Shown in pieces: positions 21,571 through 59,475 of a stretch of DNA of 64,000 nt (positions are counted from its first letter, which is position 1; each line of letters begins with the position of its first letter). Source of the stretch: Vulcanimicrobiales bacterium (GTDB taxonomy: Bacteria > Vulcanimicrobiota > Vulcanimicrobiia > Vulcanimicrobiales > Vulcanimicrobiaceae); NCBI GenBank assembly GCA_038231455.1, contig JBBRLI010000008.1, forward strand, positions 78,931 to 142,930, given 5' to 3'. The notes under the pieces were generated by a model that was not told where the DNA came from, searched no databases, and saw only the letters and a program-made list of their open reading frames with translations. Position numbers and translations under genes: made by a program.

Positions 21571-22415
21571 CCGCCCTGCACCACGACGCGTCGTGACGCC
21601 GCGCGCCACACGATGAGTGCCACGACGCTAAAGACGGCGAGCCACACGCACTGCACGAGCAGCGTGCGCGCGTAGTCGGCCGGTTTGATCACGCCGACGT
21701 AGATGAGTAGCGGTGCCGAGTAAATCGCGGCAAATGGCAAATCGAGTACGATGCGCTGGAAGATCCCGGGGAAGAAGATGAGCGGGATGATCTGACCGCT
21801 CAGCAGGTCGGAGACCCAGCGCACCATCAGTTGGATCGCGAACGTCTCGAGCGTCCAAAACGCGATCGAATTCATCAAGAAATTCAGCAAGAAATTGACG
21901 AGATATCCGATCGCAAAACTCAACACGAAGACGGCGAAGGCAAGCGGTGATGGGATGTCGACGTGAACGATGAAGAGCGCGAAGAGCAACGTTGGGAAGA
22001 TCATGAGCGCGTGGAACGCCGTGCTGCCGAAGCCGTCGCTAAAGAAGTAGAACGGCAGACTGATCGGCTTCATCAAATCCGTTGCGATCGTACCTTCTCG
22101 GACTTTCTCGCGGATCGCACGCGTGCCGTCGATTTCCAAGACGAGCGACATGAGTAGTGCGACGGTCGCATAGGTAATCATCGCGTGCAGCGGGACGCCG
22201 GTTGGCGCCGCGTTCTGCGCGTACAGCGCGACCCAAAGCATGCGCAGAAGGTAGACACGGACCAGGACCGAGGCGATGTTGGTGAAGACGTCCATTCGGT
22301 ACGTCGCTTCGCGCGCGAACGCTTTCTTCGCAAACTCGAGGTACGGTTCAAGCCGCCATGCCGGTAATCGTGGGCGGAACGGCCCGGGTCGTTCGCGCGT
22401 CTCGATGGTAGGCAT
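21567..22415 (-). CDS. ABC-2 family (DUF990-type) permease
   Basis: TYRMD, GTIATDLMKP, LSGQIIPL and C-terminal VVQGG. Confidence 0.85.
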   Translation of the reverse strand: MPTIETRERPGPFRPRLPAWRLEPYLEFAKKAFAREATYRMDVFTNIASVLVRVYLLRMLWVALYAQNAAPTGVPLHAMITYATVALLMSLVLEIDGTRAIREKVREGTIATDLMKPISLPFYFFSDGFGSTAFHALMIFPTLLFALFIVHVDIPSPLAFAVFVLSFAIGYLVNFLLNFLMNSIAFWTLETFAIQLMVRWVSDLLSGQIIPLIFFPGIFQRIVLDLPFAAIYSAPLLIYVGVIKPADYARTLLVQCVWLAVFSVVALIVWRAASRRVVVQGG

Positions 22416-22422
22416 GAACAAC

Positions 22423-23976
22423 ATGAGTTCGGCGGCGGAGGGCGATTCGCTTCGTACGACGGTCTGGATCACGGGCGATCAGTGCTCGCCGTTCAACTCG
22501 GCTCTGGTGGGCGCCGATCCGGCTCGCACCCGCGTGCTGATGATCGAATCGACGACCCGCGCTCGCATCCGGCCGTACCACAAGCGCAAGCTCGTGCTCA
22601 TCTATGCGGTGATGCGCCATTTCGCAGGCGACCTGCGTGCGGCTGGCTGGACGGTGGATTACTACGCCGAGTGTGCCGACTATCTCGGCGCACTCGATGC
22701 GCACCTTGCCGCCTGGCAGCCCCGGCAGCTGCGAATGATGGCACAGTCCGAATTCGGCGTCACCGAGAGGCTTCTCGCGCTTGCAACGGAGCGAGGCCTG
22801 CCGTACGAGGTTCTGCCGCATTGCAACTTCATCTCGGAGGCAAGCGACTTCGACCGCCTGGCCAAAACGGAATCGTCTCGCGTGACGATGGAAAATTTCT
22901 ATCGCGGCATGCGCAAGAAAACGGGCTTCCTGATGGACGGGGGCGCGCCCATTGGAGGGGCGTGGAACTACGACGCCGAGAATCGCGAACCGCCCAAAGC
23001 CGGGATGCGATTTCCCGCAGCGCTCGCCTTCAAACCCGACGAAATCACCCGCGATGTCATCGCGATGGTCGAGCGTCAATTTGCCGACCACCCCGGTACC
23101 ATCGGCATGTGGAGCCTACCGGTTACACGGCGCGATGCGCTCGAGCTGCTCGATGATTTTATCGCCAACCGGCTCGACGGATTCGGTCCGCACCAAGACG
23201 CGATGATCCTCGGCGAACGCACGATGAATCACTCCTTGCTTTCCGCCGCGATCAATGTCGGTTTGCTGCATCCGCTCGAATGTTGCGAGCGCGCGGAGCT
23301 TGCCTACCGTAGCGGCGATGCGCGGCTGCAGTCGGTCGAGGGGTTCATCCGCCAGGTCATCGGTTGGCGCGAATACATCTGGCGTATTTACTGGAAGATG
23401 ATGCCGGAGTACCGCACACGCAACGTCCTCGGCGCCACGTTGCCGTTGCCGAGATTCTTTTGGACCGGCGAGACCGACATGAATTGCCTGCGCGAGTCGC
23501 TCGCGCACGTACGCGAAACGGCCTACGCGCACCACATCTTACGACTGATGATCCTTGGCAACTTCGCCCTGATCGCCGGTTTCGAACCGCAAGAAACCAA
23601 CGACTGGTTTTGGGCGATGTTCGTTGACGGCTACGACTGGGTGATGGTCCCCAACGTCATCGGGATGACCTTGCATGCCGATGGCGGTTACGTCGGCACG
23701 AAGCCGTACGCGGCCTCGGCCAATTATATCAACAAGATGTCCAACTATTGCCGCCCGTGCCGCTACGACCCAAAACAGACGACGGGCGACGACGCGTGCC
23801 CGTTCAACAGCCTCTACTGGGATTTTCTCGACCGCAACGATGTGCGCTTCTCCAAAAATATGCGCATGGCAATGGTGATGAAAAATTGGCAGCGTCGGCC
23901 GGACGCCGGGAAGGTCGCGGTGCGGTCGCAAGCCGCGCTCATCCGCGAGCGCTTGCGCAAAAACGATCCCGTCTAG
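22423..23976 (+). CDS. Fe-S bacterial cryptochrome/(6-4) photolyase (CryB/PhrB type)
   Basis: GDQ, HKRKL, GGAWNYD, YAHHI, KPYAAS.NYINKMSNYC..C and ACPFNSLYW motifs. Confidence 0.9.
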   Translation: MSSAAEGDSLRTTVWITGDQCSPFNSALVGADPARTRVLMIESTTRARIRPYHKRKLVLIYAVMRHFAGDLRAAGWTVDYYAECADYLGALDAHLAAWQPRQLRMMAQSEFGVTERLLALATERGLPYEVLPHCNFISEASDFDRLAKTESSRVTMENFYRGMRKKTGFLMDGGAPIGGAWNYDAENREPPKAGMRFPAALAFKPDEITRDVIAMVERQFADHPGTIGMWSLPVTRRDALELLDDFIANRLDGFGPHQDAMILGERTMNHSLLSAAINVGLLHPLECCERAELAYRSGDARLQSVEGFIRQVIGWREYIWRIYWKMMPEYRTRNVLGATLPLPRFFWTGETDMNCLRESLAHVRETAYAHHILRLMILGNFALIAGFEPQETNDWFWAMFVDGYDWVMVPNVIGMTLHADGGYVGTKPYAASANYINKMSNYCRPCRYDPKQTTGDDACPFNSLYWDFLDRNDVRFSKNMRMAMVMKNWQRRPDAGKVAVRSQAALIRERLRKNDPV

Positions 23977-24066: not shown

Positions 24067-25902
24067 ATGGACGTCCGTCCTTCGTCCTCGCGATCGGTCA
24101 ATCGTGATGGGCTGAGTCTGCTTCTCGGAAATCTGGTCCCTTCGTTCGAGCTTTTCGAGGGCTTAAATGACGGTGTGGTTGTGTATGCTCCGGACGGTCG
24201 CTGGGCGGCTTGCAATCGGAAAGCGGCGCAACTCGTCGGATACGAGTCCGCCGACCTGATCGGACAGCAGCTCGGACGGTTCATTGCCGAGGTCGAGAAG
24301 CAGCGGATCGCGTCAATTTTCGAGACGACGCTGCGCGGCGAAGTACTTCCCGAGTTCGAAACGCATCTCGTCCACGCCGATGGCACGCGGGTCGAGATCA
24401 TGCTGCGCCTGCTCCCGGCGACCTTCGACGGCGAGATCGTTGGCATCTATGGAATCGCCACCGACCTGCGCGCCCAGCGTTCGATCGAACGCGTCTTTGC
24501 AAACAACGCGCAGAAGTATCGCTCGCTGTTCGAACATCATACCGACGCGATCGTCATCGTTGATTCCAAAGGACGCTTTGCAGCGATCAACATCGCGGCG
24601 GAAGAGATGACGGGCTATCTCAACGAGGAAGTCGTCCACCAGCCGGTCGCGATGTTGTTTGATTCGGACGTCCCCGGCGTCACCGCCGGCGTTCTTGCCG
24701 CCACAACCCATACCGAGTCGACGCGCTACGTGCTGCCGCTGCTGCGCAAAGACGGAACGCACATCGACGTCGAGGGGGAGACGATCCCGATCATCATCGA
24801 CGGTGTTGTCACGGGCTTCTTCGCCGTGTCGCGCGACGTAACCGAACGCGAGATCTTGGCAGAAGAGATTGCCACCAAGAGCCGCCGCATCCACCAACTC
24901 TATCGCATCGCATCCTCGGTCAAGGCGACACCGGACGAACAAATCGCCCGCGCGCTCGAGCTGGGTCTCGAAGAGCTTGGATACGAGTGGGGCGAAATCG
25001 GACGGGTCGGAGACGGCGTCCTTACCGTTACGCATAGTGTCGGTAAGGATAACGAATTTCAAGTCGGCTTTACGGCGCCGATCGGCCAGACGCTCGCGCG
25101 CCACGTGATCGCGAACGATGAAATGCTGGTGATCGAAGACCTTTCACAGCCGCCGTGGTTGACCGACCGTTCCGGACGTGCAAAAAAATACAGCTCGTTC
25201 GTCGGCGTTCCGATTCACTACGATGGCGCACCCGGTGTCGTTTCGCTCTACGGCTCGAAGCCGCGCTCGCTCACGGAAACCGACCGCGATTATATCGCCG
25301 CAATCGTCGCGCTTGCGACGACGTCGGTCGCGCGCAGTCTCCACCACGAACGACTCGATGCGCTCGCTTTTGCCGATACGCTCACCGGTTTACCGAACCG
25401 GCTGCTCTTCATGGACCGGCTCGAACAGCAACTGAATTTTGCGAAACGCCAGAAGCGTTCGTTTGCCGTGCTCTACGTCGATTTCGATCACTTCAAATCC
25501 GTCAACGATACCTACGGTCATGCGATCGGCGATGCGTTTCTCATCGAGATGGCAAAACGATTCCTCGCCGTCGCACGCGAGAGCGACACCGTCGCGAGAA
25601 TCGGCGGCGACGAGTTCGTTATTCTCCAGCCGGAGATTACCGATGCCGAACGCGCAACGGAGTTTGCCACGCGCCTCCTCGAGGCCACGCGCAAACCGCT
25701 GATCTTCGACACCGTCACGATCGTACCGTCGATCAGCATCGGGATTTCCGTCTATCCGCACGATGGCGTACGTTCGGAGTCGCTCCTGGGCAATGCCGAC
25801 ACGGCACTCTATTGCGTCAAGGCTGCGGGGCGCAACAATTTTGCGCTCTACGATCCGAAAATGGAGGCGCGTCCGCGCCCCCGAGGGATGACGACCGGCT
25901 AG
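24067..25902 (+). CDS. PAS-PAS-GAF diguanylate cyclase
   Basis: [14 protein letters not shown]-site and GGDEF motifs. Confidence 0.9.
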
Positions 25903-26735
25903 ACGGCCATCGCCGGTGCCGGAATATCCGGCGAGCGGACGTAGTCGGCACCGAGCTGGGTGAAGAGTTCGCGCTCGGGGATCGGTGTCGGAATAACGAG
26001 CGGCACGCCATCGAGCATGCGCTGCGCCAGATCCATCCACGGCGCGCCGATGAAGCCTGTCGGGTCCTGTTCGAACACCGTCTGCGCCGTCAGACGCGAC
26101 TTCCGTACGCCGTCGTTTTCCGGAATACACAGCAGGCACGTCGATCCAATGCGCTCGGCGAACGGTCCGACGAGTTCGGCGTTCGAGGCGCGGTTGGCCA
26201 CGATACCGGCAAGCGTTCCGCCACCGGTCTTTTGTTTGATGGTGATCGCCGTAGCGATGCGGTTCGCCGCGAAAATCGAGTCGAAGTCGTTGGTCGCAAC
26301 GATGATGACTTGCTCCGAATGCTGGAGCGGTGCGGAGAAACCGCCGCACACGACGTCACCGAGAACATCGAAGATCATCACTTCGTAGTCTTTGTAGACG
26401 CCGAATTTTTCGAGCAGCTTGACGGTCTCGCCGACGACGTAGCCGCCGCAACCGGCGCCCGCCGGCGGTCCGCCCGCCTCGACGCAATCGACGCCATATT
26501 TGCCTTTGAAGATGATCTCGTCTTTTTCGATCTCTTCGCTCTTGAACTTATAGGAGCTGAGGACTTCGACGACCGTCGGGATGAGGTTTCCCGTGAGCGT
26601 GAACGTCGAGTCGTGCTTCGGGTCGCAACCGACTTGGATCGTCTTTTTGCCTAAGATTCCGAACGCGGCCGAGAGGTTCGATGAGAACGTGCTCTTCCCG
26701 ATCCCGCCCTTGCCATAGACCGCAATTTTCAGCAT
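25899..26735 (-). CDS. bchL: Dark-operative protochlorophyllide reductase Fe protein
   Basis: [43 protein letters not shown] and [11 protein letters not shown] motifs. Confidence 0.93.
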
Positions 26736-26813: not shown

Positions 26814-26829
26814 GGTGATAAACGTCACC
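26814..26829 (-). promoter_or_regulatory. Crp/Fnr-type palindrome upstream of bchL
   Basis: GGTGAcgtttaTCACC, 22 nt from TACGGT at 26786-26791. Confidence 0.8.
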
Positions 26830-34600: not shown

Positions 34601-35649
34601 GGATCGCCGAGATCGTGAATGAGATCGATCGACGGCTCGGGTGCGCCCGCGAACATCGAACCCGCAAGATAGAGCGGAACGTTGTGATAGACGGCGTTGA
34701 CCAGCGGTTGCTGCGTTTTCGTCGCGAGCAAATGTTTACGCGAAACGATGTGCGCGTTGAACACCGCGGTCATCGAGGTGATAACGCCGAGGCCGCGCTT
34801 CTCCCACGCTTCGATTGCGGCGTTGAGCACGGGATGGTTCCACTCAACGAGGAAGAGATCGTGCGTAATGAAGCCGATGCGATCCCAGGGCTTCTTGCCG
34901 TACGTTTTTTCAAAATACGGTTCGTACCACGCGAGATACTCTTCCGGTGTTTGGAAGAGCCCCTTGTGTGCGGGGTGGTAGATGCCTTCGTTCTCGACCT
35001 TGGCGGGGAGCGGAACGACGCCTTTGTAGGCGTTGTTCATGAAGTTCTGCATCAGGTACAAGAACATGTTTTCCACGTTCTCGACGCTGCGGTTATTCCA
35101 GTAACCGATCATGACGAGATTTTTGAAGACCGGCTTCTTGAGAAGCTTGGCCATGAGCGGGGCCGCACCGACCATCTTCTGCATCCCGAGGAAACCTTGG
35201 CGCGCTTCCCAGAGCTCGTCGATGACTTCGTTCTTTGCTTTTGCCTGATAGCGTTTGATCGCCATCGACATCTCGCGCATTGGGTTGGACTTGTTCATGT
35301 CGAACTCGAAGCCCAGCGACTTGAACATCATGTTCTGCAGGCGCGGATCGGGAATGTCGTACCACAGGAATTTGACCTTGTTCAATTCCCCGGCGCGGTC
35401 CATCTCGACCACCAGCTGGGCCAGGCGCTCGACCGTATCGTGCGTCATCGCCTGCCAGCCGACGAAGATGTCGGCACCCTTGATCGACTCCCGCAGGCGC
35501 CCGAGGGCGGCGGGGTCGTTGAAGTCGGCCGCACCATAGTGCTCTAGCTCCCACGGCTGACCCGTCTTCTCGCGCAGATTGTGAAAGGCGAGACGCATAG
35601 CATTCGCGCGCTCGTCCGGGGCCCATGAGGAATAGCCGACAACCTTCAT
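31681..35649 (-). CDS. bchH: Magnesium chelatase H subunit (CobN/BchH family, divergent)
   Basis: 1322 aa; YNFPPG, HVGTHGLVEW, VLPTGRN and LGRPRID motifs; shares the upstream palindrome with other bch loci. Confidence 0.8.
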   Translation of the reverse strand: MKVVGYSSWAPDERANAMRLAFHNLREKTGQPWELEHYGAADFNDPAALGRLRESIKGADIFVGWQAMTHDTVERLAQLVVEMDRAGELNKVKFLWYDIPDPRLQNMMFKSLGFEFDMNKSNPMREMSMAIKRYQAKAKNEVIDELWEARQGFLGMQKMVGAAPLMAKLLKKPVFKNLVMIGYWNNRSVENVENMFLYLMQNFMNNAYKGVVPLPAKVENEGIYHPAHKGLFQTPEEYLAWYEPYFEKTYGKKPWDRIGFITHDLFLVEWNHPVLNAAIEAWEKRGLGVITSMTAVFNAHIVSRKHLLATKTQQPLVNAVYHNVPLYLAGSMFAGAPEPSIDLIHDLGDPRVYTSPVNAAMSRADLAASKFGVASLEYIGNIVTPETEGIQPMPPICSREATNADISALEPIPDRVENLAEISTRWLKLRHLKNDEKKIAAFIYNFPPGPGNIGVALFLDIAGSIRTMLETLQENGYRTGDIDATDLEISKKLQDMYAGYHTVGAVSSAEIRDWVHDLPTKFESYFYDVWGQPPATIPIKGLRFGNILVLLQDMQGMEDLSAIHDKGAPPSPWLLASYRYATRRFNADAIVHVGTHGLVEWAKGKEWCPAAGDYPEFLVDSTPHAYIFNVVDPVEASIARRRSYATILSHLCPPLVSVDGSEDLRNLHRLVHDYYNTNSSDVEKRSDIASEVVEVVERSGIRTEAAGQQPLLPPARVPDERGGIDVRWANEDEQRKYVARVHDELVSLEGEFAPAGQHVFGRNLSPEDQLSTFYACLEFSDVDFYRLIAGCYGIPYDKLMADQHGRTADGLYNHEILDEIKEAGKEIVSAEVLRPSGKVGQAAIVGILSTRPIAGHTLAKNPYELGELTTFIERARTLYAELGRVGDGERKGLLTALDGKYLEPSAGGEPVGNWNVLPTGRNMASTDVRMLPREAACRKARRTVEQILEAAVAERGHYPATVGVVLWGSEVLESDGVGIAQALDLMGVRVQKDRFNRAERVELISLDELGRPRIDILANTSTVFKNTFPGAIRLIHDAAVLASNADEPYEWNFVKKHTDHMIANGMDPELAKARCFGMGEDAFMGQVGAMLDTGNFTDFNDIGAAWMSDNSNAYIPEFASILIKPAADIQRYLVETVEVIQQPLVQMAAGGPVKEDMFASFTSAFGAAKRTMGHEDTMIVVSDLTRRDPKVKNFRNIVVNGVLTRFHSQAWRDKMMEHGYSGVMEFGDIFKAMRSTEAALGNTISPELWKRTVEVTLSEWDRISDANVHKTRDLGNILLDTQRRGMWADADLEQALKDKLNELDADVELTTYRRQLSGSAGD

Positions 35650-35683
35650 ATAAGGAGGCTACGCCCACGGGGGGGCCCGGGAC

Positions 35684-35699
35684 GGTGATAGCTATCACC
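35684..35699 (-). promoter_or_regulatory. Perfect Crp/Fnr-type palindrome upstream of bchH
   Basis: GGTGATAGCTATCACC, 22 nt from TAGCCT (35656-35661), which lies 6 nt before the ATG. Confidence 0.85.
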
Positions 35700-52666: not shown

Positions 52667-53020
52667 CTAGCGACAGTTGGTCGCGGTGTTACCGAGCACG
52701 AATGCGGAGACAAGGGCCACGAGCCACACGGCTACGGCGACCAGCGCACGGCGGCGGAACGTGCGTTTGCGCGCCGCGAGTGCACCGATGAGAAAGAGGA
52801 CGAGCCCCGCGACGCCGGACGTCCACGGAAACATCAGGATCGGATCCCTTACCCATGCGCGCCCCGCGGCGAGTGCAATTCGCGGATCGATCGGCGTGCC
52901 CGCGGGATGGCACGCGAGCGTCGCGTAGGTCGCGCCAAATAGCGACCACGCGACGAGCGCACTTAGGACCCACCCAAGGCCGCTGATGATGCGATCAACC
53001 CGCGTAACGCGGGTCGTTAT
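52667..53020 (-). CDS. Hidden 3-TM membrane protein downstream of acsF (apparent ATA start)
   Basis: 117-codon open frame with three hydrophobic segments; ATA overlaps the acsF TAA; first ATG is only at about codon 63. Confidence 0.55.
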   Translation of the reverse strand: MTTRVTRVDRIISGLGWVLSALVAWSLFGATYATLACHPAGTPIDPRIALAAGRAWVRDPILMFPWTSGVAGLVLFLIGALAARKRTFRRRALVAVAVWLVALVSAFVLGNTATNCR

Positions 53021-54162
53021 GCGGGGACCGGTTCCCGTGTTGGTGCGGACGGCGGCGCGGCAGGTCCGCGTAGCGACGTGGGCTTAGCGCCAGCGAGAAA
53101 GAGCCCTGAGACCTCTGATGGATCGGCGGCGGTTTCGGTCCAGCGTTCGCGCGGCAGCGGTTCAACGAAGTCGTGCGGCTGGAAGACGAGCTTGAAGAAC
53201 TGGATGAGGTTGCTCGCGTAACGCGCGTTGCGCATGATCAGCGCCGGGATGCGTGCAAGGCCTTTTTTGCCGCGGTTGGCTTTGTTGGCGAAGTTGTTGC
53301 GCATCATCGTGCGCAGCGTGTTGATGAAGAAGTCGGACTCCGTACGGATCGCAAGACCCCATACGCCGCGCGCGGCCTTTTCGGTTTCGTTGATGACCTT
53401 GCGGTCGTACTTTTCCCAATCGAGGCCAAGCTTCGAGTAGATCGTCGATTCGCAGTCGCGCAGATACATCGTGACGTAGACGGCCAGCGTGAACATCTTA
53501 ATCGCGAAGTGATTCTTGAAGCCAACCAGATACTGCGGCTGGCTGCGCAGCATGAGCGCGAAAAAGCGGCTGTGCCGGCGCTCGTCGTTGCACCATTCGT
53601 GAAAGTACTTGAAGATCGGGTGGAAGCCGAACTCCGGATGCATCTTGAGATGATCGCTGATGTTCTGGTAGCGGTAGAAGCCGATGATCTCCGAGAGATA
53701 CGTCGTGATGAAGATCAGCTTCGGGTGCATGTGGGTGAGCTTTTCCATCTTCGGCAGAATCGCCAAATCGAACGGCCGGCCCATGTGGCGCATCACCCAC
53801 GAGAGGAACGATGAATGACGCCCTTCATCGCGGCCCATCAGACGATAGATCATCGCAACGTCGGGGTCGGTAATTTTTTTCTGGACGTCGCTGTAGAGCA
53901 GACAGCCTGAGAATTCCCCAATCGACGAACGATTGAGGAACTCATAGAACTCGTCCCACAGCGGACGGTAGTCGAGGTTGTTGACCTCGTCGTCCCATTT
54001 GAAGTGCGCGCGATTCCAATCGCGTTCGAAGTCTTCGCGGAGCGCTTTGAATTCCGGACGGCACCACTCGACATCGAGCGAGTTGAGGATGTTGATGTCG
54101 GTTTTGTAGAGACGCGGCTTCAGTAAGTCCGGGGCGCCGGTTTTGGTGCGAGCGATCGCCAC
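53017..54162 (-). CDS. acsF: O2-dependent Mg-protoporphyrin IX monomethyl ester cyclase
   Basis: PRLYKTD, EFSGCLLY, DEGRH, YLSEIIG and WCNDERRH di-iron motifs. Confidence 0.93.
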   Translation of the reverse strand: MAIARTKTGAPDLLKPRLYKTDINILNSLDVEWCRPEFKALREDFERDWNRAHFKWDDEVNNLDYRPLWDEFYEFLNRSSIGEFSGCLLYSDVQKKITDPDVAMIYRLMGRDEGRHSSFLSWVMRHMGRPFDLAILPKMEKLTHMHPKLIFITTYLSEIIGFYRYQNISDHLKMHPEFGFHPIFKYFHEWCNDERRHSRFFALMLRSQPQYLVGFKNHFAIKMFTLAVYVTMYLRDCESTIYSKLGLDWEKYDRKVINETEKAARGVWGLAIRTESDFFINTLRTMMRNNFANKANRGKKGLARIPALIMRNARYASNLIQFFKLVFQPHDFVEPLPRERWTETAADPSEVSGLFLAGAKPTSLRGPAAPPSAPTREPVPA

Positions 54163-54172
54163 CGAGTAGCGC

Positions 54173-54934
54173 CTAGCGCCGGACCGCTTCGAACACGAAG
54201 CTGTCGTAGAAGAAGAACTTCACGCGCTCGGTCCGGGTGATCTTGTAGCCCGCGCGATACATGATGCGCTCGACTTCGTCGTAGCTGAACATGAAGAGAT
54301 TGGTCATGCGATTCTTCGCATGGAATTTCGTGCCCATCTTCATCCAGAAATCGTTGAACGGCGTGCGCAGTGCGAACGACGCGACGAGTTTATGCGAGGA
54401 GAGATTAGCAAGGCGCGAGAGCATGTCTTGCACTTCGGCGAGCGGGTAGTGGAAGAGCACATCGAGGCAGCAGACGAGATCGTAGGTTTTCTCGGTGCCT
54501 TCAACGGCGCTGATATCGCCGACTTGGAAGTGCGGTGCGATGCCTTTGGTGCGGCCGCTATTGATGTACTTCGCGTAGTGGATCATCGGCGCTGAGACAT
54601 CGAATGCATCGACGTCGTAGCCGTGATTCGCGAGTTCCAGTGAGAGCGTTCCCGTACCGCAACCGGCGTCGAGCACGGTGTGCGAAGAATCGTCTTTCAC
54701 CCATTTGACCACTTGATCGAGCGCGCGCTGGTGACCGTCGCGGATGACTTTCCAGATCGGCGGAATGTCGCCGGCTCCGTAAATGGCCGTCCACCGCGAG
54801 AAGCCCGAGGTCTCGAAATATTTACGGACTTTTTGTCCGACGGGCGAGGCGTTGTCGCCACCGAAAAGCGGTTTGCGCGCCGGCGCTGCGACGCCAGGTT
54901 GGGCGATCGTCCGGGTCAGCTGCTCTTGTTGCAT
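54173..54934 (-). CDS. bchM: Mg-protoporphyrin IX methyltransferase
   Basis: VRKYFETSGFSRW..IYG, DAGCGTG and CLDVLFHYP motifs. Confidence 0.92.
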   Translation of the reverse strand: MQQEQLTRTIAQPGVAAPARKPLFGGDNASPVGQKVRKYFETSGFSRWTAIYGAGDIPPIWKVIRDGHQRALDQVVKWVKDDSSHTVLDAGCGTGTLSLELANHGYDVDAFDVSAPMIHYAKYINSGRTKGIAPHFQVGDISAVEGTEKTYDLVCCLDVLFHYPLAEVQDMLSRLANLSSHKLVASFALRTPFNDFWMKMGTKFHAKNRMTNLFMFSYDEVERIMYRAGYKITRTERVKFFFYDSFVFEAVRR

Positions 54935-55009
54935 CGGGGCTACCTCTGAAGGGGGACGAGATAAAGCCCGTCCGGTGTCCTTACTGTAGCCGCTACCGGG
55001 TCAATGTAC

Positions 55010-55025
55010 GGTGACGACTATCACC
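55010..55025 (-). promoter_or_regulatory. Crp/Fnr-type palindrome upstream of bchM-acsF
   Basis: GGTGAtagtcgTCACC, 21 nt from TACAGT (54983-54988); overlaps the stop codon of the upstream small gene. Confidence 0.8.
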
Positions 55026-55209
55026 CACGCCGGACGATCGGCGCTACGGGACCCATCCGACGCTGAATTTGGCGGTACGCGACCACGACGCCGAAGGCGA
55101 TCGCCGCCAGAATCACGGCCACGAAAACGATTTTAAGAACGAAAGCAAGGACGATCAGCGCCACGATGGCGCCGGCAGCGAGCACGGCGAAGCGGATAAA
55201 GAGCGACAT
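55021..55209 (-). CDS. Small 62-aa hydrophobic membrane protein
   Basis: GGAGG RBS with ATG; about 40 contiguous hydrophobic residues. Confidence 0.7.
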   Translation of the reverse strand: MSLFIRFAVLAAGAIVALIVLAFVLKIVFVAVILAAIAFGVVVAYRQIQRRMGPVAPIVRRG

Positions 55210-55257
55210 GACAACCTCCACCCACACGTACTGCGCGGGGTGGCCCGGAGTTTCGCG

Positions 55258-56340
55258 CTACGTTTCGGCGCCGCTCGTGGCAAGCTCGGCCAGCTTCGAG
55301 GCATCCAGAATGACGATCGTCGCGCCTTTGCGCGTTTCGATGAAGCCGCGGTCCTGCAGCTCGTGCAGTTTCCTTGTGACCGTCACGCGGTTCGAGCCGA
55401 TCATATCCGCCAGACGCTGGTGGGTGAGCGGGACGTCGATCGCACCGTCGGGTTTCCCAAACTGCTTGCCAAGTTCCAGGAGCGTTCGGTAGAGGCGCAA
55501 GTTGACGCTGTTGTTGAGCAGATCTTCGATGAGGACTTGCGACTCGGTCATCCGGCGCGCGAAATTCGTGATCACGTCGATTGCGGCCATCGGCTGCTGC
55601 GCGATCACGTCGGCAAGCTCGGTATCGCTCACCGCGACGAGCGACGAATCGGCCATCGCCTCCGCGCACAGGCACGAGAGGCTGCCCGATTCGGCGCGCC
55701 ACTGGAGAAAGACGTCGTTCGGTCCGAGGATCGAGAGCGTGATGCAACGGCCGTTGGGAAGTAAGTTGTAGAGCCGCAGCTTCCCCGTCTCGACAAAATA
55801 GAAGCGCATGCCCGAGTCGTAGAGAGGCGTGATTTCCTCACCGACTTGCAGGCTAATCGAGGTCGACCCGGCCTTGTTGCGCAGCAGTGCCGCGAGGCGC
55901 TCCTTGGCGACGATCTTTGCCGAGGGGTCGATATTTTTTTCACGGTCGGACTCGAGCTTGTAGCCCTCGGCGACGGCCATGACGATCATCGAGCGCAACT
56001 CGGCGATTTCGTTAATGATGTCCAGCGGCGGGATCATGCCGTCGTTGGCCTCGAGCAACGCTAGCTCGATCATGTTGGTGGCCTCGACGTTGCGGCGGAT
56101 CGCATCGGAGAGATCCATCCCCGAGCGCGCTTGGAAAACGCCGGCGTCCCGCGAGTAGCCCATGAGTTCTTCGAAGTCCGCGGTCTCGACGGCGCGAACG
56201 ATCGCATCCCAGTACTGGGTGTGCTTCGAAATCAGCTCCGGCCGTGGGGGGGTCGAGAACGTCGAAACGCTCTGATTTACCCACCGGTCGGTGTACATCT
56301 GCGTACTCTTACGAAGCATCGCAGCGAGGGTAGCGGACAC
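55258..56340 (-). CDS. Crp/Fnr-family regulator with extra N-terminal helical (RsbRD_N/globin-like) domain
   Basis: cNMP-like barrel (FYFVETGKLRL..LGPNDVF); HTH LTHQRLADMIGSNRVTVTR; about 130-aa N-terminal extension. Confidence 0.88.
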   Translation of the reverse strand: MSATLAAMLRKSTQMYTDRWVNQSVSTFSTPPRPELISKHTQYWDAIVRAVETADFEELMGYSRDAGVFQARSGMDLSDAIRRNVEATNMIELALLEANDGMIPPLDIINEIAELRSMIVMAVAEGYKLESDREKNIDPSAKIVAKERLAALLRNKAGSTSISLQVGEEITPLYDSGMRFYFVETGKLRLYNLLPNGRCITLSILGPNDVFLQWRAESGSLSCLCAEAMADSSLVAVSDTELADVIAQQPMAAIDVITNFARRMTESQVLIEDLLNNSVNLRLYRTLLELGKQFGKPDGAIDVPLTHQRLADMIGSNRVTVTRKLHELQDRGFIETRKGATIVILDASKLAELATSGAET

Positions 56341-56409
56341 AGGAGCACCCTTTCCGGGAATGTGATGGTCTTCCGCTTCATATAGTGAGCCGAACTGCCG
56401 ACCACTGAA

Positions 56410-56425
56410 AGCGACCCAAGTCACC
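56410..56425 (-). promoter_or_regulatory. Degenerate copy of the palindrome upstream of the Crp/Fnr gene
   Basis: GGTGActtgggTCGCT (8/10 match), 22 nt from CACTAT (56382-56387). Confidence 0.55.
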
Positions 56426-56446
56426 GAAGCTGGAGTTTTTTACAAG

Positions 56447-56620
56447 ATGTCAGGCCTCGACTCGATCGGCTCAGCCGCCTCAGCCGCTCTCACCGCCGGA
56501 ACCGGCAACGCAACAATCGCGACCAGCTTGCTCGCTGGTGCGAATTCGTTCGAAAAAGATATCGTCAACCGCCTGTTCTCCTCGATCGGGCTCGGTTCGA
56601 ACGTTAACGCCCTCGCCTAG
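56447..56620 (+). CDS. Small 57-aa protein, YjfB-like C-terminus (absent from the ORF track)
   Basis: GGAG upstream; MSGLDSIGS...RLFSSIGLGSNVNALA. Confidence 0.6.
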   Translation: MSGLDSIGSAASAALTAGTGNATIATSLLAGANSFEKDIVNRLFSSIGLGSNVNALA

Positions 56621-56691
56621 GAAAGCGACGCGAACGTCTGTTCGTGTTTTGAGAGGTCCGACCCGCCCGAGGCCTTGAAGCCTCGGGGTCC

Positions 56692-59475
56692 GTGGACGAC
56701 ACTTTTGCCGCGCTCCATCCGACCGTCGCTGCCTGGTGCGACGAGAAGCTGGGCACCCCGACACCGCCGCAGGCGCAAGCGATCCCGCACGCGCTTGCTG
56801 GCCGCAGCACGCTGATTTGCTCGCCGACCGGGACCGGGAAGACGCTCGCAGCGTTTTTGCCCGTGATGTCGCGCCTTGCGTATCTGCGCGATGAAGACAA
56901 GCTCGTGCCGCGACCGGTCGCGCTGTACATTTCGCCGTTGCGGGCGCTCGGCTACGACGTCGAACACAACTTGCGCCGGCCGCTGCGCGAGATGGGGATT
57001 CTCGAACGCCCGAATACGGAACGCGCCGTTAAGCGACGCGGGCGCATTCGCGAAATGTTCGTTCGCACCGGCGTGCGCACGGGCGATACACCGGTAGAAG
57101 AACGGCGTTTGATGATGGCGCGCCCGCCGCACGTGCTCATCACGACGCCCGAATCGCTTGCGCTGATGATCGCGATGGAATCGTATCGCAAGACGCTCAA
57201 GTCGATCGAAACGGTGATCGTCGATGAAGTGCACGCGCTTGCAAATAACAAACGCGGCTCCCAACTCGCGCTCTTACTCGAATCGCTCGAGGGCATCGTG
57301 AAGCAACCGCTTCACCGGGTGGGACTCTCAGCGACGGTCGAACCGCTCGATGAGGTCGCGCAATTTCTTGTGGGCAGCGAGCGCGAATGCTCGATCGTCG
57401 ATTGTCGCGGTTTGCGTTCGATTCGGTTTTCTGTCGTCGCACCATTCGCCGGAGCGATGGCGCCGCTCGCGCGCGCCGCGCAGACGGCCTTTGCGCTCAG
57501 TGAGGACGTGCGCACGTCGCTGGTCTTCACCAACGTTCGATCGCAGGCGGAACGCGTCGCCCATGAGATGACGCTTGCTGGCGAATCGCCGGAGGAAATC
57601 ACGGTGCCCGAACACGTGCGCGAAAAGCCCGCGCGCGACCGCCGCATCGGCGTACACCACTCGGCACTCGAGAAAAACGTGCGGCATAAGGTCGAGGCGG
57701 GACTGCGCGACGGTACGCTACGGACCGTCGTGTGTAGTTCGTCGCTCGAGCTTGGCGTCGATATTGGCTTTATCGATCGCGTGCTCTTACTCGGCGGCGC
57801 GCGCGGCATGACGCCGACCTTACAGCGCGTCGGGCGCGCGGGGCATCGACCGGGGGCGGTCGCCGAGGGAATCGTGATCGCTCAGGATCGAGACGATATC
57901 ATCGAGGCGGCCGCGACGAAACGCTGCATTGCCGATGGGATCATCGAACCGCTCAATATCCCCGAGGCACCGCTTGACGTGCTCGCGCAGTGGCTGGTCG
58001 GAAGCGTCTGCTACGATCGCCGTTTTGCAATCGACGACGCGCTCGCAACGGCGCGGCGCGCGTATCCGTTTCGCAAACTTGAGGAACGCGATCTGCGCGC
58101 CTGTGTCGCGTATCTCTCGGGCGGCGGAGCGGGACCCGATGAGGCGCATGTGTCGCGCTTGGGCACCGACGGCGTTGCGATCTACGGCCTCGGTCGCGAG
58201 AAGAGCTCGGCGTTTTTCGAAAACGTCGGGACCATTCCCGACGAACGCACGATCGCCGTCGGCAGCAAAGGCGGGCCGCAGATCGGTCGGCTCGATGAGA
58301 GTTTTGCCTCCGGTCTTAAAGAAGGCGACGTGTTCTTGCTCGATGGTCGAACGTTGCGCGTGAAAGAAGTCGCGCCGGGCGGACTCAAAGTTGAGCCGTT
58401 CGCCGGTCGGCCAAACGTACCGCAGTGGTCCTCGCATCTCAAAGGCATTCCGCTTGTCCTTGCGCGCGAGGTCGGCGTGCTGCGGCGCGGCGTCGTCGCG
58501 GCACTTTCGGCGGGTGGACCGCAAGCGGCGCTACGGTACTGCGCGCAGCGCTACTCTCTCGATGGTGTCGAGGCAGCACATGTGGTCCGCTATATCGCGC
58601 AGCAGCATGCAATTTCTGCCGTCCCCGACGATCTCAATCCGATCGTCGAGATCTATCGGATGGATCAGCGGCAGACGGCGGTCTATCACACCGGCGTCGG
58701 TCGCCGGATCAATGAAGTGCTCGCGCGCATGGTGGGAGCGCGGGTCTCCAAACGCTATCGCGTACCGGCGCAGTTGAGTACCGATGACAACGGGTTTCTC
58801 GTCGCGCTTCCCCCGCGCGTGACGATTCCAGATGCCGAGTGGGCTTCGTTTCTGAGCGTCGCTGGATTCGACGAGGATTTGCTCGCGGGTTTGCGCGCGT
58901 CGTATCTCCTTCGGCAGCATTTCCGTTACGTCGCGAATACGGGGTTGCTCGTGCTGCGGCGCGCGGGCGGTGCGACGCTGCGGCGTGGTGCGCTCGCGTG
59001 GAACAGCCAGAAAATCTTCGATCGACTCTGGGAGGCCGATCGCAATTTCCCGCTGATCCGCGAGACGATGCGTGTCGTCACGCGCGATCTTATGGACGCG
59101 CCGGGGGCTCGCACCTACCTCGAATCACTTGCTGGCGAACCGCGCGTGCTCCATCCGGCTGCAGCCTCTCCGTTTACGTTTGGTATCGTCACCTCGTCGT
59201 TCGGTGACTCGGTTGTGATGGACGACCGCGCATCGATGGTGGAAGCCTTACACGAACGCGTCCTCGCACTGCTTGGCGAGACGCCCGACGACGAGATCGA
59301 TGTCCTAGCGGCGATGTCGAACGATGTCTCGCTCGACAAACGCTCGCTCTGGAAAGACGCGCTCGGTCCGACCTCGGCCGCTGCGCCTGCCCCGGTCGAC
59401 GCCGACGGTCAGCCGATGCTCATTGCAACAGCGAAGCCGCTCGTGCGTAAGCGTCGCGAACGCGCGGCGCGATGA
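56692..59475 (+). CDS. Lhr-family DEAD/DEAH helicase
   Basis: SPTGTGKT, TTPESL, DEVH, GLSAT, SSLELGVD and QRVGRAGH motifs. Confidence 0.92.
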   Translation: MDDTFAALHPTVAAWCDEKLGTPTPPQAQAIPHALAGRSTLICSPTGTGKTLAAFLPVMSRLAYLRDEDKLVPRPVALYISPLRALGYDVEHNLRRPLREMGILERPNTERAVKRRGRIREMFVRTGVRTGDTPVEERRLMMARPPHVLITTPESLALMIAMESYRKTLKSIETVIVDEVHALANNKRGSQLALLLESLEGIVKQPLHRVGLSATVEPLDEVAQFLVGSERECSIVDCRGLRSIRFSVVAPFAGAMAPLARAAQTAFALSEDVRTSLVFTNVRSQAERVAHEMTLAGESPEEITVPEHVREKPARDRRIGVHHSALEKNVRHKVEAGLRDGTLRTVVCSSSLELGVDIGFIDRVLLLGGARGMTPTLQRVGRAGHRPGAVAEGIVIAQDRDDIIEAAATKRCIADGIIEPLNIPEAPLDVLAQWLVGSVCYDRRFAIDDALATARRAYPFRKLEERDLRACVAYLSGGGAGPDEAHVSRLGTDGVAIYGLGREKSSAFFENVGTIPDERTIAVGSKGGPQIGRLDESFASGLKEGDVFLLDGRTLRVKEVAPGGLKVEPFAGRPNVPQWSSHLKGIPLVLAREVGVLRRGVVAALSAGGPQAALRYCAQRYSLDGVEAAHVVRYIAQQHAISAVPDDLNPIVEIYRMDQRQTAVYHTGVGRRINEVLARMVGARVSKRYRVPAQLSTDDNGFLVALPPRVTIPDAEWASFLSVAGFDEDLLAGLRASYLLRQHFRYVANTGLLVLRRAGGATLRRGALAWNSQKIFDRLWEADRNFPLIRETMRVVTRDLMDAPGARTYLESLAGEPRVLHPAAASPFTFGIVTSSFGDSVVMDDRASMVEALHERVLALLGETPDDEIDVLAAMSNDVSLDKRSLWKDALGPTSAAAPAPVDADGQPMLIATAKPLVRKRRERAAR

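Follow-up and report, generated by a model that had tools for sequence, protein, structure and literature searches.

A 64,000-nucleotide stretch of contig JBBRLI010000008.1 from a Vulcanimicrobiales bacterium (the window, which denotes that whole stretch throughout) carries a scattered set of bacteriochlorophyll (bch) genes together with a gene for an unusual Crp/Fnr regulator, here called CrpL, in which a globin-like helical domain precedes a Crp-type barrel and an NtcA-type DNA-reading head. Within the genomes sampled, CrpL is restricted to phototrophic Eremiobacterota (Vulcanimicrobiaceae), as is a second and smaller Crp protein, CrpS, encoded by the last gene of the pufBALMC reaction-centre operon. 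Two conserved operators accompany these regulators, one at the puf promoter and another before the bch operons. In the reading that we favor, and to which we assign a fair degree of probability, the two proteins would form a two-tier cascade in which CrpL acts on puf-crpS and CrpS acts on the bch operons and hemB.

The minus-strand open reading frame (ORF) at 55258..56424 is real and contains CrpL. Because an N-terminus of the form (M/V)S-x-x-LA-x-MLRKST is common to 11/11 orthologous loci and to 26 database homologs, we place the start at GTG 56340, and the listed GTG start lies too far upstream. The coding sequence spans 55258..56340 (minus strand) and specifies 360 residues plus a stop. A Crp-type winged helix-turn-helix (HTH) assigns the protein to the Crp/Fnr superfamily, with 68.6 bits for HTH_Crp_2 (PF13545, cut-off 27) and 24 bits for Crp (PF00325, cut-off 21). 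The match to cNMP_binding (PF00027) is marginal, at 28.3 bits against a cut-off of 27.5, and no Pfam family matched the first ~185 residues of the 388-residue frame. The full-length AlphaFold (AF2) model, which is of moderate confidence (pLDDT 76, pTM 0.47), consists in order of helices within residues 1–134, a linker helix at 139–154, a beta-barrel at 160–238, a long helix at 250–294 and the winged HTH. The barrel (55627..55863, minus strand; cNMP-binding-like) is delimited by PF00027 and by the modeled strands, and together with the 250–294 helix it supplies the barrel and long dimerization helix of the superfamily. The linker helix (55879..55926, minus strand), which joins the sensor domain to the barrel, is the least conserved stretch in an alignment of 27 sequences. 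In that same alignment the HTH (residues 307–330; 55351..55422, minus strand), which is matched by both HTH_Crp_2 and Crp, is invariant in 27/27 sequences, as is its recognition helix SNRVTVTRKL (55366..55395, minus strand). CrpL is thus a genuine transcription factor whose sensor domain is unusual, and the sensor-fused protein of about 360 residues that had originally been predicted from the DNA alone is borne out in its length, helical N-domain, Crp barrel and HTH. The cultured Vulcanimicrobium alpinum has an ortholog, WPS_24930.

One sample of 301 Eremiobacterota genomes was searched for Photo_RC (PF00124, pufL/M), the CrpL N-domain and CrpS. Photo_RC was present in 25 genomes, and 23 of these, but no others, had the CrpL N-domain. 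Of the two genomes in which the N-domain was missing, one (G274) has the C-terminal part of the protein where a contig breaks off, bringing CrpL to 24/25, and in the other (G283) the contig ends 121 nucleotides (nt) beyond the bchM promoter. CrpL was absent from all 276 sampled genomes without reaction-centre genes, and CrpS orthologs (E≤1e-71, 56–99% identity) occur in exactly the 25 that have them. Phototrophy is patchy within genera (e.g. 2/19, 1/2), and the profile therefore contains some independent contrasts, with the proviso that related genomes are still not independent.

Gene order was compared in 29 of 30 related loci, leaving out L090, a match of 34 residues. The order CrpL, operator box, bchM-acsF was found in 18/29 loci; CrpL followed by pufBALMC-crpS-box-bchF in 5/29; and CrpL directly before crpS in a single locus (L086). 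A divergent lhr helicase gene lies upstream of CrpL in 20/29. In the window, bchM (Mg-protoporphyrin IX methyltransferase; 54173..54934, minus strand) is identified by Pfam Mg-por_mtran_C (E 6.8e-21), and the gene that follows it (53017..54162, minus strand) by Pfam Rubrerythrin (E 5.1e-21). The latter would encode an acsF-like aerobic Mg-protoporphyrin monomethyl ester cyclase of the rubrerythrin fold, a name taken from context and from the original prediction, not from a specific model; an acsF-like gene follows bchM in 22 loci. The close tie to phototrophy and to bchM-acsF that had been proposed for this regulator is thus supported by both the genome profile and synteny, and the distribution is the opposite of one in which orthologs are equally common in non-phototrophic relatives and lack linkage to bch genes.

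The operator before the bch operons is a GGTGA-N6-TCACC box. Four exact copies are present in the window, all on the minus strand and all before bch operons, and copies with one mismatch number zero. They precede the bchN-bchB-bchG-bchP run (9817..9832, with CACAAT at a 22 nt gap), bchL (26814..26829, with a TACGGT −10 at 22 nt and a true start at an ATG near 26735), bchH (35684..35699, with a TAGCCT −10 at 22 nt and the ATG 6 nt further) and bchM-acsF (55010..55025, with a TACAGT −10 at 54988..54983, 21 nt downstream). A fifth box of the photosynthesis region lies just outside the window, before bchFCXYZ, and the hexamers that follow the five are TACGAT, CACAAT, TACGGT, TAGCCT and TACAGT. Genome-wide there are 7 exact boxes, 5 of which fall in the 77.5-kb photosynthesis region against an expectation of 0.15, and when all 4–6-mer dyads with spacers of 0–12 nt were ranked by enrichment in that region, this box came out on top. 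Five other phototrophic genomes have 6–10 exact boxes each (0–1 for a reversed control pattern), with 3–6 per genome clustering in the photosynthesis region. Allowing at most one mismatch, the box occurs upstream of bchM in 22/23 loci and of bchF in 6/6, and a TAnnnT hexamer follows it at 21–22 nt in all 28 of these promoters (22 bchM, 6 bchF; background 0.86%). It stands where a −35 element would be, which implies the geometry of a class-II activator. The box is a real and conserved operator of class-II type, serving the bch operons and that of hemB.

The hemB copy, CGTGATAGCTATCACC, has one mismatch and lies between hemC and hemB on another contig of the window genome (C4:21777; L011:6778-6793). 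Downstream of it are hemB, a MobA-like NTP-transferase gene, hemL, hemA and a hemD-fusion gene, and the box regulon may therefore reach general tetrapyrrole synthesis. At bchH (35647..35699) and bchF (L009:12635-12700) the predicted −10 ends 6–9 nt before the ATG, and these mRNAs may be leaderless. The bchM promoter also contains GTAGCCGCTAC (54986..54996), in which half-sites of the puf operator described below are separated by a 1-nt spacer; it overlaps the predicted bchM −10, and nothing like it was seen in the other bchM promoters compared.

CrpS is one of 8 Crp paralogs in the window genome. It comprises 226 residues. Its start codon abuts the pufC stop, and ~70 nt separate its end from the bchF box; in 5 other loci, tblastn matches to pufC and crpS lie 5–17 nt apart. 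Its recognition helix, RETVSR, is of the CRP type (R-E-x-x-x-R) and is invariant in 11/11 sequences. CrpL and CrpS share 27–33% identity over their full lengths. A hairpin followed by a T-run (ggcgcc..ggcgcc-gctttt) lies after crpS, just before the bchF box, as would suit the boundary of an operon. Upstream of pufL are short ORFs that resemble pufB and pufA (L009:8610-8995, on contig C8 of the same genome, upstream of the window).

No GGTGA box is present before pufB. A different palindrome, GTAGCAGTGGCTAC, lies 88 nt before pufB in the window genome (contig C8:67507, outside the window), with TAACCT 23 nt further on. The corresponding pattern, GTA(G/A)(C/T)-N4-(G/A)CTAC, occurs upstream of pufB in 21/21 regions that reach far enough, a 22nd being cut by a contig end. 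It is situated 76–100 nt before the inferred pufB start in 20/21; in the remaining genome, G238, the inferred start is unreliable. Each site has a −10-like hexamer downstream, and the flanking sequences have diverged. The broader NtcA-type pattern GTA-N8-TAC is rare elsewhere: 302.6 kb of related loci contain 19 such sites, and upstream of CrpL no site is conserved. Five such sites inside the window (2.2 expected) were set aside as candidates: none is in a photosynthesis promoter, and one falls in the CrpL coding region.

Which protein reads which operator can be approached through the recognition codes of NtcA and CRP. In the available part of PMC11850224, NtcA recognizes its box through R186, V187, T190 and R191: R186 reads the guanine at position 7, R191 bonds the guanine at position 3, V187 and T190 clamp the thymine methyl at position 6, V187 packs on bases 5 and 6, and a V187E substitution abolishes binding. 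The base contacts of Escherichia coli CRP are Arg180, Glu181 and Arg185 according to Table 1 of PMC12531629, the part of that article used here; the accessible portion of another source (PMC3590769) contained no residue-level recognition code. CrpL has the base-contacting R, V, T and R of NtcA. The top three matches of its HTH segment in the PDB are the NtcA chains 2xgx, 8h3v and 3la2, in which the RVTVTR core is identical, and the claim of an NtcA-type recognition helix is thereby confirmed. Among the 8 Crp paralogs of the window genome, R-V-x-x-T-R is unique to CrpL, and CrpS has equivalents of all three CRP contacts. On the DNA side, the puf site reads G7 T6 A5 with a G:C pair at position 3, and the GGTGA box reads G7 T6 G5 A4, a CRP-type core. 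The operators differ at position 5, and hence where the Val/Glu difference between the two proteins is expected to read. By analogy with NtcA and CRP, CrpL probably reads the puf GTA-N8-TAC site and CrpS probably reads the box.

The original prediction had assigned the boxes to CrpL itself, as a master regulator that binds and activates the bch operons, including bchM-acsF, and controls its own gene through a degenerate copy. CrpL does lie directly upstream of a box-driven operon in the 18 loci noted above, and G7 and T6 of the box are the bases read by R186 and by V187/T190 in NtcA. Position 5 of the box, in contrast, is always G, which fits the Glu-containing helix of CrpS and not a Val, and the puf GTA-N8-TAC site would be left without a reader, no other paralog having R-V-x-x-T-R. 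With CrpS, which carries R-E-x-x-x-R, encoded between pufC and a box, the claim that CrpL binds the GGTGA box is probably wrong, and we regard this model as a whole as unlikely. The caveat entered at the time, that another Crp paralog could be the true box binder, now appears to be the better reading, given CrpS and the conserved palindrome at the puf promoter. As a master regulator CrpL would not act directly through the boxes, and it may still top the hierarchy indirectly.

The site on which autoregulation was to depend, GGTGACTTGGGTCGCT (56410..56425, minus strand), differs from the box at two positions and is probably not functional. It is present as described, exactly 22 nt before CACTAT (56382..56387, minus strand), a −10-like hexamer upstream of CrpL that was read from the sequence, and this is the spacing of true boxes. 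Matches with two mismatches number 36 in the window, this site included, and all matches amount to 40 against 21.9 ± 5.0 in shuffled sequence. In 11 orthologous CrpL promoters nothing similar occurs at the homologous position; their best matches have 2–5 mismatches and are scattered. A scan of 54900-56720 for the sigma-70 consensus found no promoter. Since GGTGACTTGGGTCGCT is neither conserved nor above chance, autoregulation through the box is unsupported, and we reject it on that ground.

A second candidate operator in this region was also rejected. The palindrome CGAACGTACGTTCG occurs between CrpL and lhr, ~115–135 nt upstream of CrpL, in loci L013–L015 and L021–L023, and its counterpart in the window genome has diverged to gcgaacgtctgttcg (about 56628-56645). 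As an element of the divergent lhr helicase gene it makes better sense than as one of CrpL, and it presumably represents a LexA/Cheo-type SOS box for lhr.

In the cascade that we favor, a CrpL dimer would bind GTA(G/A)(C/T)-N4-(G/A)CTAC at the predicted class-II position, 22–23 nt before the TAnnnT −10 of pufB, and from this site would activate the operon pufB-A-L-M-C-crpS. Its last gene would supply CrpS, a small Crp protein with CRP-type contacts, which, from class-II positions on the GGTGA-N6-TCACC boxes, would in turn activate bchFCXYZ, bchNB.., bchL, bchH, bchM-acsF and probably hemB. Both the pairing of proteins with operators and activation as the effect are what we infer from the helices and from operator geometry. 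Such a cascade would couple apoprotein synthesis to pigment synthesis, with CrpL as its signal-sensing top tier.

Several observations weigh against this arrangement. The pairing relies on transferring the recognition code of NtcA and CRP to these proteins, and since the box also has G7 and T6, it could be a weaker target of CrpL. Genome-wide, the puf-type site shows no enrichment: the window genome has 3 exact GTAGC-N4-GCTAC sites against 4.3 expected, and five other genomes have 7–20 loose motif matches each, likewise with no enrichment, so that the support for this site consists of positional conservation among related, non-independent genomes. In the L086 genome, where CrpL directly precedes crpS, no GTA-N8-TAC lies between the two. 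The commonest neighbor of CrpL is box-driven bchM-acsF, not puf, and a third paralog (contig C13) has the helix RETVNR, which is also R-E-x-x-x-R. Finally, the models that include the N-domain are of moderate quality (pLDDT 73–76, with a full-length pTM of 0.47).

The genomic association of the two regulators would also accommodate promoters that they share, with CrpL and CrpS competing at the boxes or forming mixed dimers (for instance of an activator with a signal-dependent antagonist) and the puf site being read by either. Both proteins occur in all sampled phototrophic genomes and in no other, they have a common motif in the first HTH helix (THQ-LA-MIG), and their genes are adjacent in one genome. 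Their operators, however, differ exactly where the differing residues read, full-length identity is as low as given above, and nothing speaks for hetero-dimers; we find this arrangement quite unlikely. The lack of genome-wide enrichment would agree with yet another possibility, namely that CrpL regulates something other than puf and bch, or serves as a co-regulator without DNA binding of its own, and that an unrelated factor reads the puf palindrome. An intact and invariant HTH argues against this, as does the fact that no other paralog has a helix suited to the single conserved site of NtcA type that the photosynthesis cluster yielded, and we consider such a role very improbable.

Additional copies of these components occur in some phototrophic genomes. 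Duplicated puf operons and extra CrpL paralogs, with N-domains 34–45% identical to that of CrpL, were seen in G045, G126, G130, G139, G105 and G161 (loci L055–L060). The sequence RVTVTRKL is kept in 4 of the 6 loci compared; in L057 and L058 a pattern search did not find it. Of 7 extra N-domain matches, 5 are near puf copies, and the puf sites there are GTAAC-N4-GCTAC.

The sensor domain of CrpL (residues 1–134; 55939..56340, minus strand) is all-helical, contains no Cys and has a globin/RsbR-N-like fold according to AF2, VIA-align and Foldseek. Modeled alone, it formed six helices (pLDDT 73). At the sequence level it was not recognized: no Pfam family matched the isolated domain even at E≤10, including RsbRD_N (PF14361), and the best match among PDB sequences had an E-value of 0.23. 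Foldseek returned nothing from the PDB at E≤0.001, the top matches being globins at E 0.18–1. VIA-align gave Z 11.6 to 3zta (N-domain of the stressosome protein MtR), 11.3 to 3pmc (pXO2-61), and 10.7 both to 2bnl (RsbR-N) and to the haem sensor globin 4uiq, values that lie below the ~13 under which, by the tool's own note, a helical match may reflect a common helix arrangement only. Among the 50 matches listed, all were globin-fold proteins. An Atlas model of the homolog P0075, used in place of CrpL itself, had a TM score of 0.74 to a cluster with RsbRD_N in 64% of its proteins. The predicted RsbRD_N/globin-like domain therefore holds at the level of fold, by VIA-align and the Atlas cluster, and fails at the level of sequence, in Pfam and against PDB sequences.

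This domain has a narrow distribution. A profile search of 1.84 billion representative proteins returned 17 at E≤1e-3, and all are proteins of 348–391 residues with the same Crp fusion, or fragments. The distant homolog P0137 (391 residues, E 9.4e-4) has the same architecture and recognition helix, and a metagenome scan found no relative. A globin-like domain joined to Crp is a new sensor architecture, represented by 17 clusters among the 1.84 billion.

The original prediction had also pointed to Cys residues in the barrel and to the absence of an FNR-type N-terminal Cys cluster. Both statements agree with our results. The GRCIT and SCLC motifs are present, and the two Cys of SC[L/I]C (C223 and C225, an invariant Cys-Leu-Cys at 55666..55674, minus strand) are conserved in 27/27 sequences; the GRC Cys varies (C/T/M/A). 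No Cys occurs in residues 1–165 of a 353-residue reading of CrpL, and with an N-domain free of Cys there is no FNR-type cluster. In an alignment with GlxR (4cyd), L-S-C-L-C of CrpL stands opposite R-T-S-S-A, a stretch that we take to be the cAMP-binding residues of GlxR, and the Arg and Ser/Thr residues that bind the cAMP phosphate in CRP are missing from the CrpL barrel. To judge from this alignment, binding of a cyclic nucleotide is unlikely. Candidate sensing sites are the globin-like pocket and the invariant CxC, and our guess is that through either or both of them CrpL detects redox state or O2, metabolism linked to light, or a tetrapyrrole.

In the part of the V. alpinum description available (PMC9758169), bchM rises 2.9-fold and pufL 1.86-fold in the light, which makes a signal linked to light or redox plausible. 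The words "regulator" and "crp" do not occur in this description, which concerns the only cultured member, and nothing was found in open-access texts (without supplements) on regulators of Eremiobacterota photosynthesis genes.

CrpL can be compared with several known systems. The closest in its DNA-reading head is NtcA, the cyanobacterial nitrogen regulator. NtcA_cyano is the best NCBIfam match, with 66.8 bits that remain far below the equivalog cut-off of TIGR03697 (244.95). The available part of PMC3898017 describes canonical NtcA promoters as class-II, with a site centred near −41.5, a geometry shared by the predicted CrpL target. CrpL differs from NtcA in adding a globin-like N-domain of ~150 residues, in having CxC in the barrel where effector-binding residues are expected, in its host, which is not a cyanobacterium, and in its predicted target, which is a reaction-centre operon instead of nitrogen genes. 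The barrel, long dimer helix and HTH are those of E. coli CRP, Corynebacterium GlxR and mycobacterial CRP, and the best full-length PDB sequence matches of the Crp half come from the CRP/GlxR group (GlxR 4cyd, E 2.3e-16). The contacts R-E-x-x-x-R of this group are shared by CrpS and its GTGA-N6-TCAC core by the box, whereas CrpL has a Val in place of the base-contacting Glu.

On the sensor side, the fold of the CrpL N-domain resembles, over 118–134 residues, the N-domain of RsbR, RsbRD_N and the non-haem sensor globins of the stressosome and of pXO1-118/pXO2-61. The RsbR systems differ in their output, which is a STAS domain where CrpL has a Crp DNA-binding module, and no PF14361 sequence match links them to CrpL. 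Like the globin-coupled sensors HemAT, DosC, BpeGReg and AfGcHK, CrpL combines an N-terminal globin-fold sensor with an output module, and VIA-align gave Z 9.2–10.7 to 4uiq, 4zva, 5ohe and 2w31. It may depart from them at the expected place of the proximal haem ligand, where no conserved His was found in a mapping that was not residue by residue; the domain has a single near-invariant His, H40, which the full-length model places in the third helix. A Crp/Fnr output for globin-coupled sensors did not turn up among the 10 best-ranked of 552 papers in one literature search. PpsR/CrtJ-AerR of purple bacteria are likewise dedicated regulators whose genes lie within the photosynthesis gene cluster and whose targets are palindromes of bch and puf promoters. 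They belong to other protein families and are repressors, whereas CrpL and CrpS are predicted class-II activators. No PpsR-CrtJ match above cut-off was obtained in the window genome, which is 93.67% complete (best 31.4 vs 275.4 bits).

Other features of the window bear on its organization. The bch genes scattered along it are bchP, G, B, N, L and H, a bchI/D-like gene and bchM. Upstream of CrpL and divergent from it are the gene of an Lhr-type helicase (56692..59475) and a gene for a 256-residue protein without a Pfam match. Between CrpL and the bchM box is a small hydrophobic ORF of 62 residues (55021..55209, minus strand), identified by translation and tblastn, whose stop codon overlaps the box. 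Matches at the same position in 9 loci are weak (E 3e-10 to 1e-4, with composition correction off), and the product may resemble PufQ or act as a small partner protein in the membrane. Adjoining bchL, both on the plus strand, are genes for a photolyase-related protein (Pfam DPRP; 22276..23976) and a PAS-PAS-GAF-GGDEF protein (24067..25902), candidate light or redox inputs to the region. A syntenic locus (58–67% identity) was also observed at L065, L066, L070, L072, L073 and L088, in metagenome-assembled genomes titled Rhodospirillales, Janthinobacterium and Alphaproteobacteria; these titles look doubtful.

A more specific proposal is that the N-domain has a tetrapyrrole ligand, which might be haem, Mg-protoporphyrin or a precursor of bacteriochlorophyll, or responds to O2 or to redox state, and so makes CrpL a pigment- or oxygen-gated activator of the NtcA type atop the cascade. 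We regard this as speculative and improbable. If true, it would mean that a control circuit for anoxygenic photosynthesis evolved independently in Eremiobacterota, where purple bacteria have control of the PpsR/AerR type. The locus provides a complete and testable model, comprising two phototroph-specific Crp regulators, two class-II operators, a defined regulon and a new sensor architecture, and it could show how a patchily phototrophic phylum wires pigment synthesis to apoprotein synthesis without the regulators of purple bacteria.

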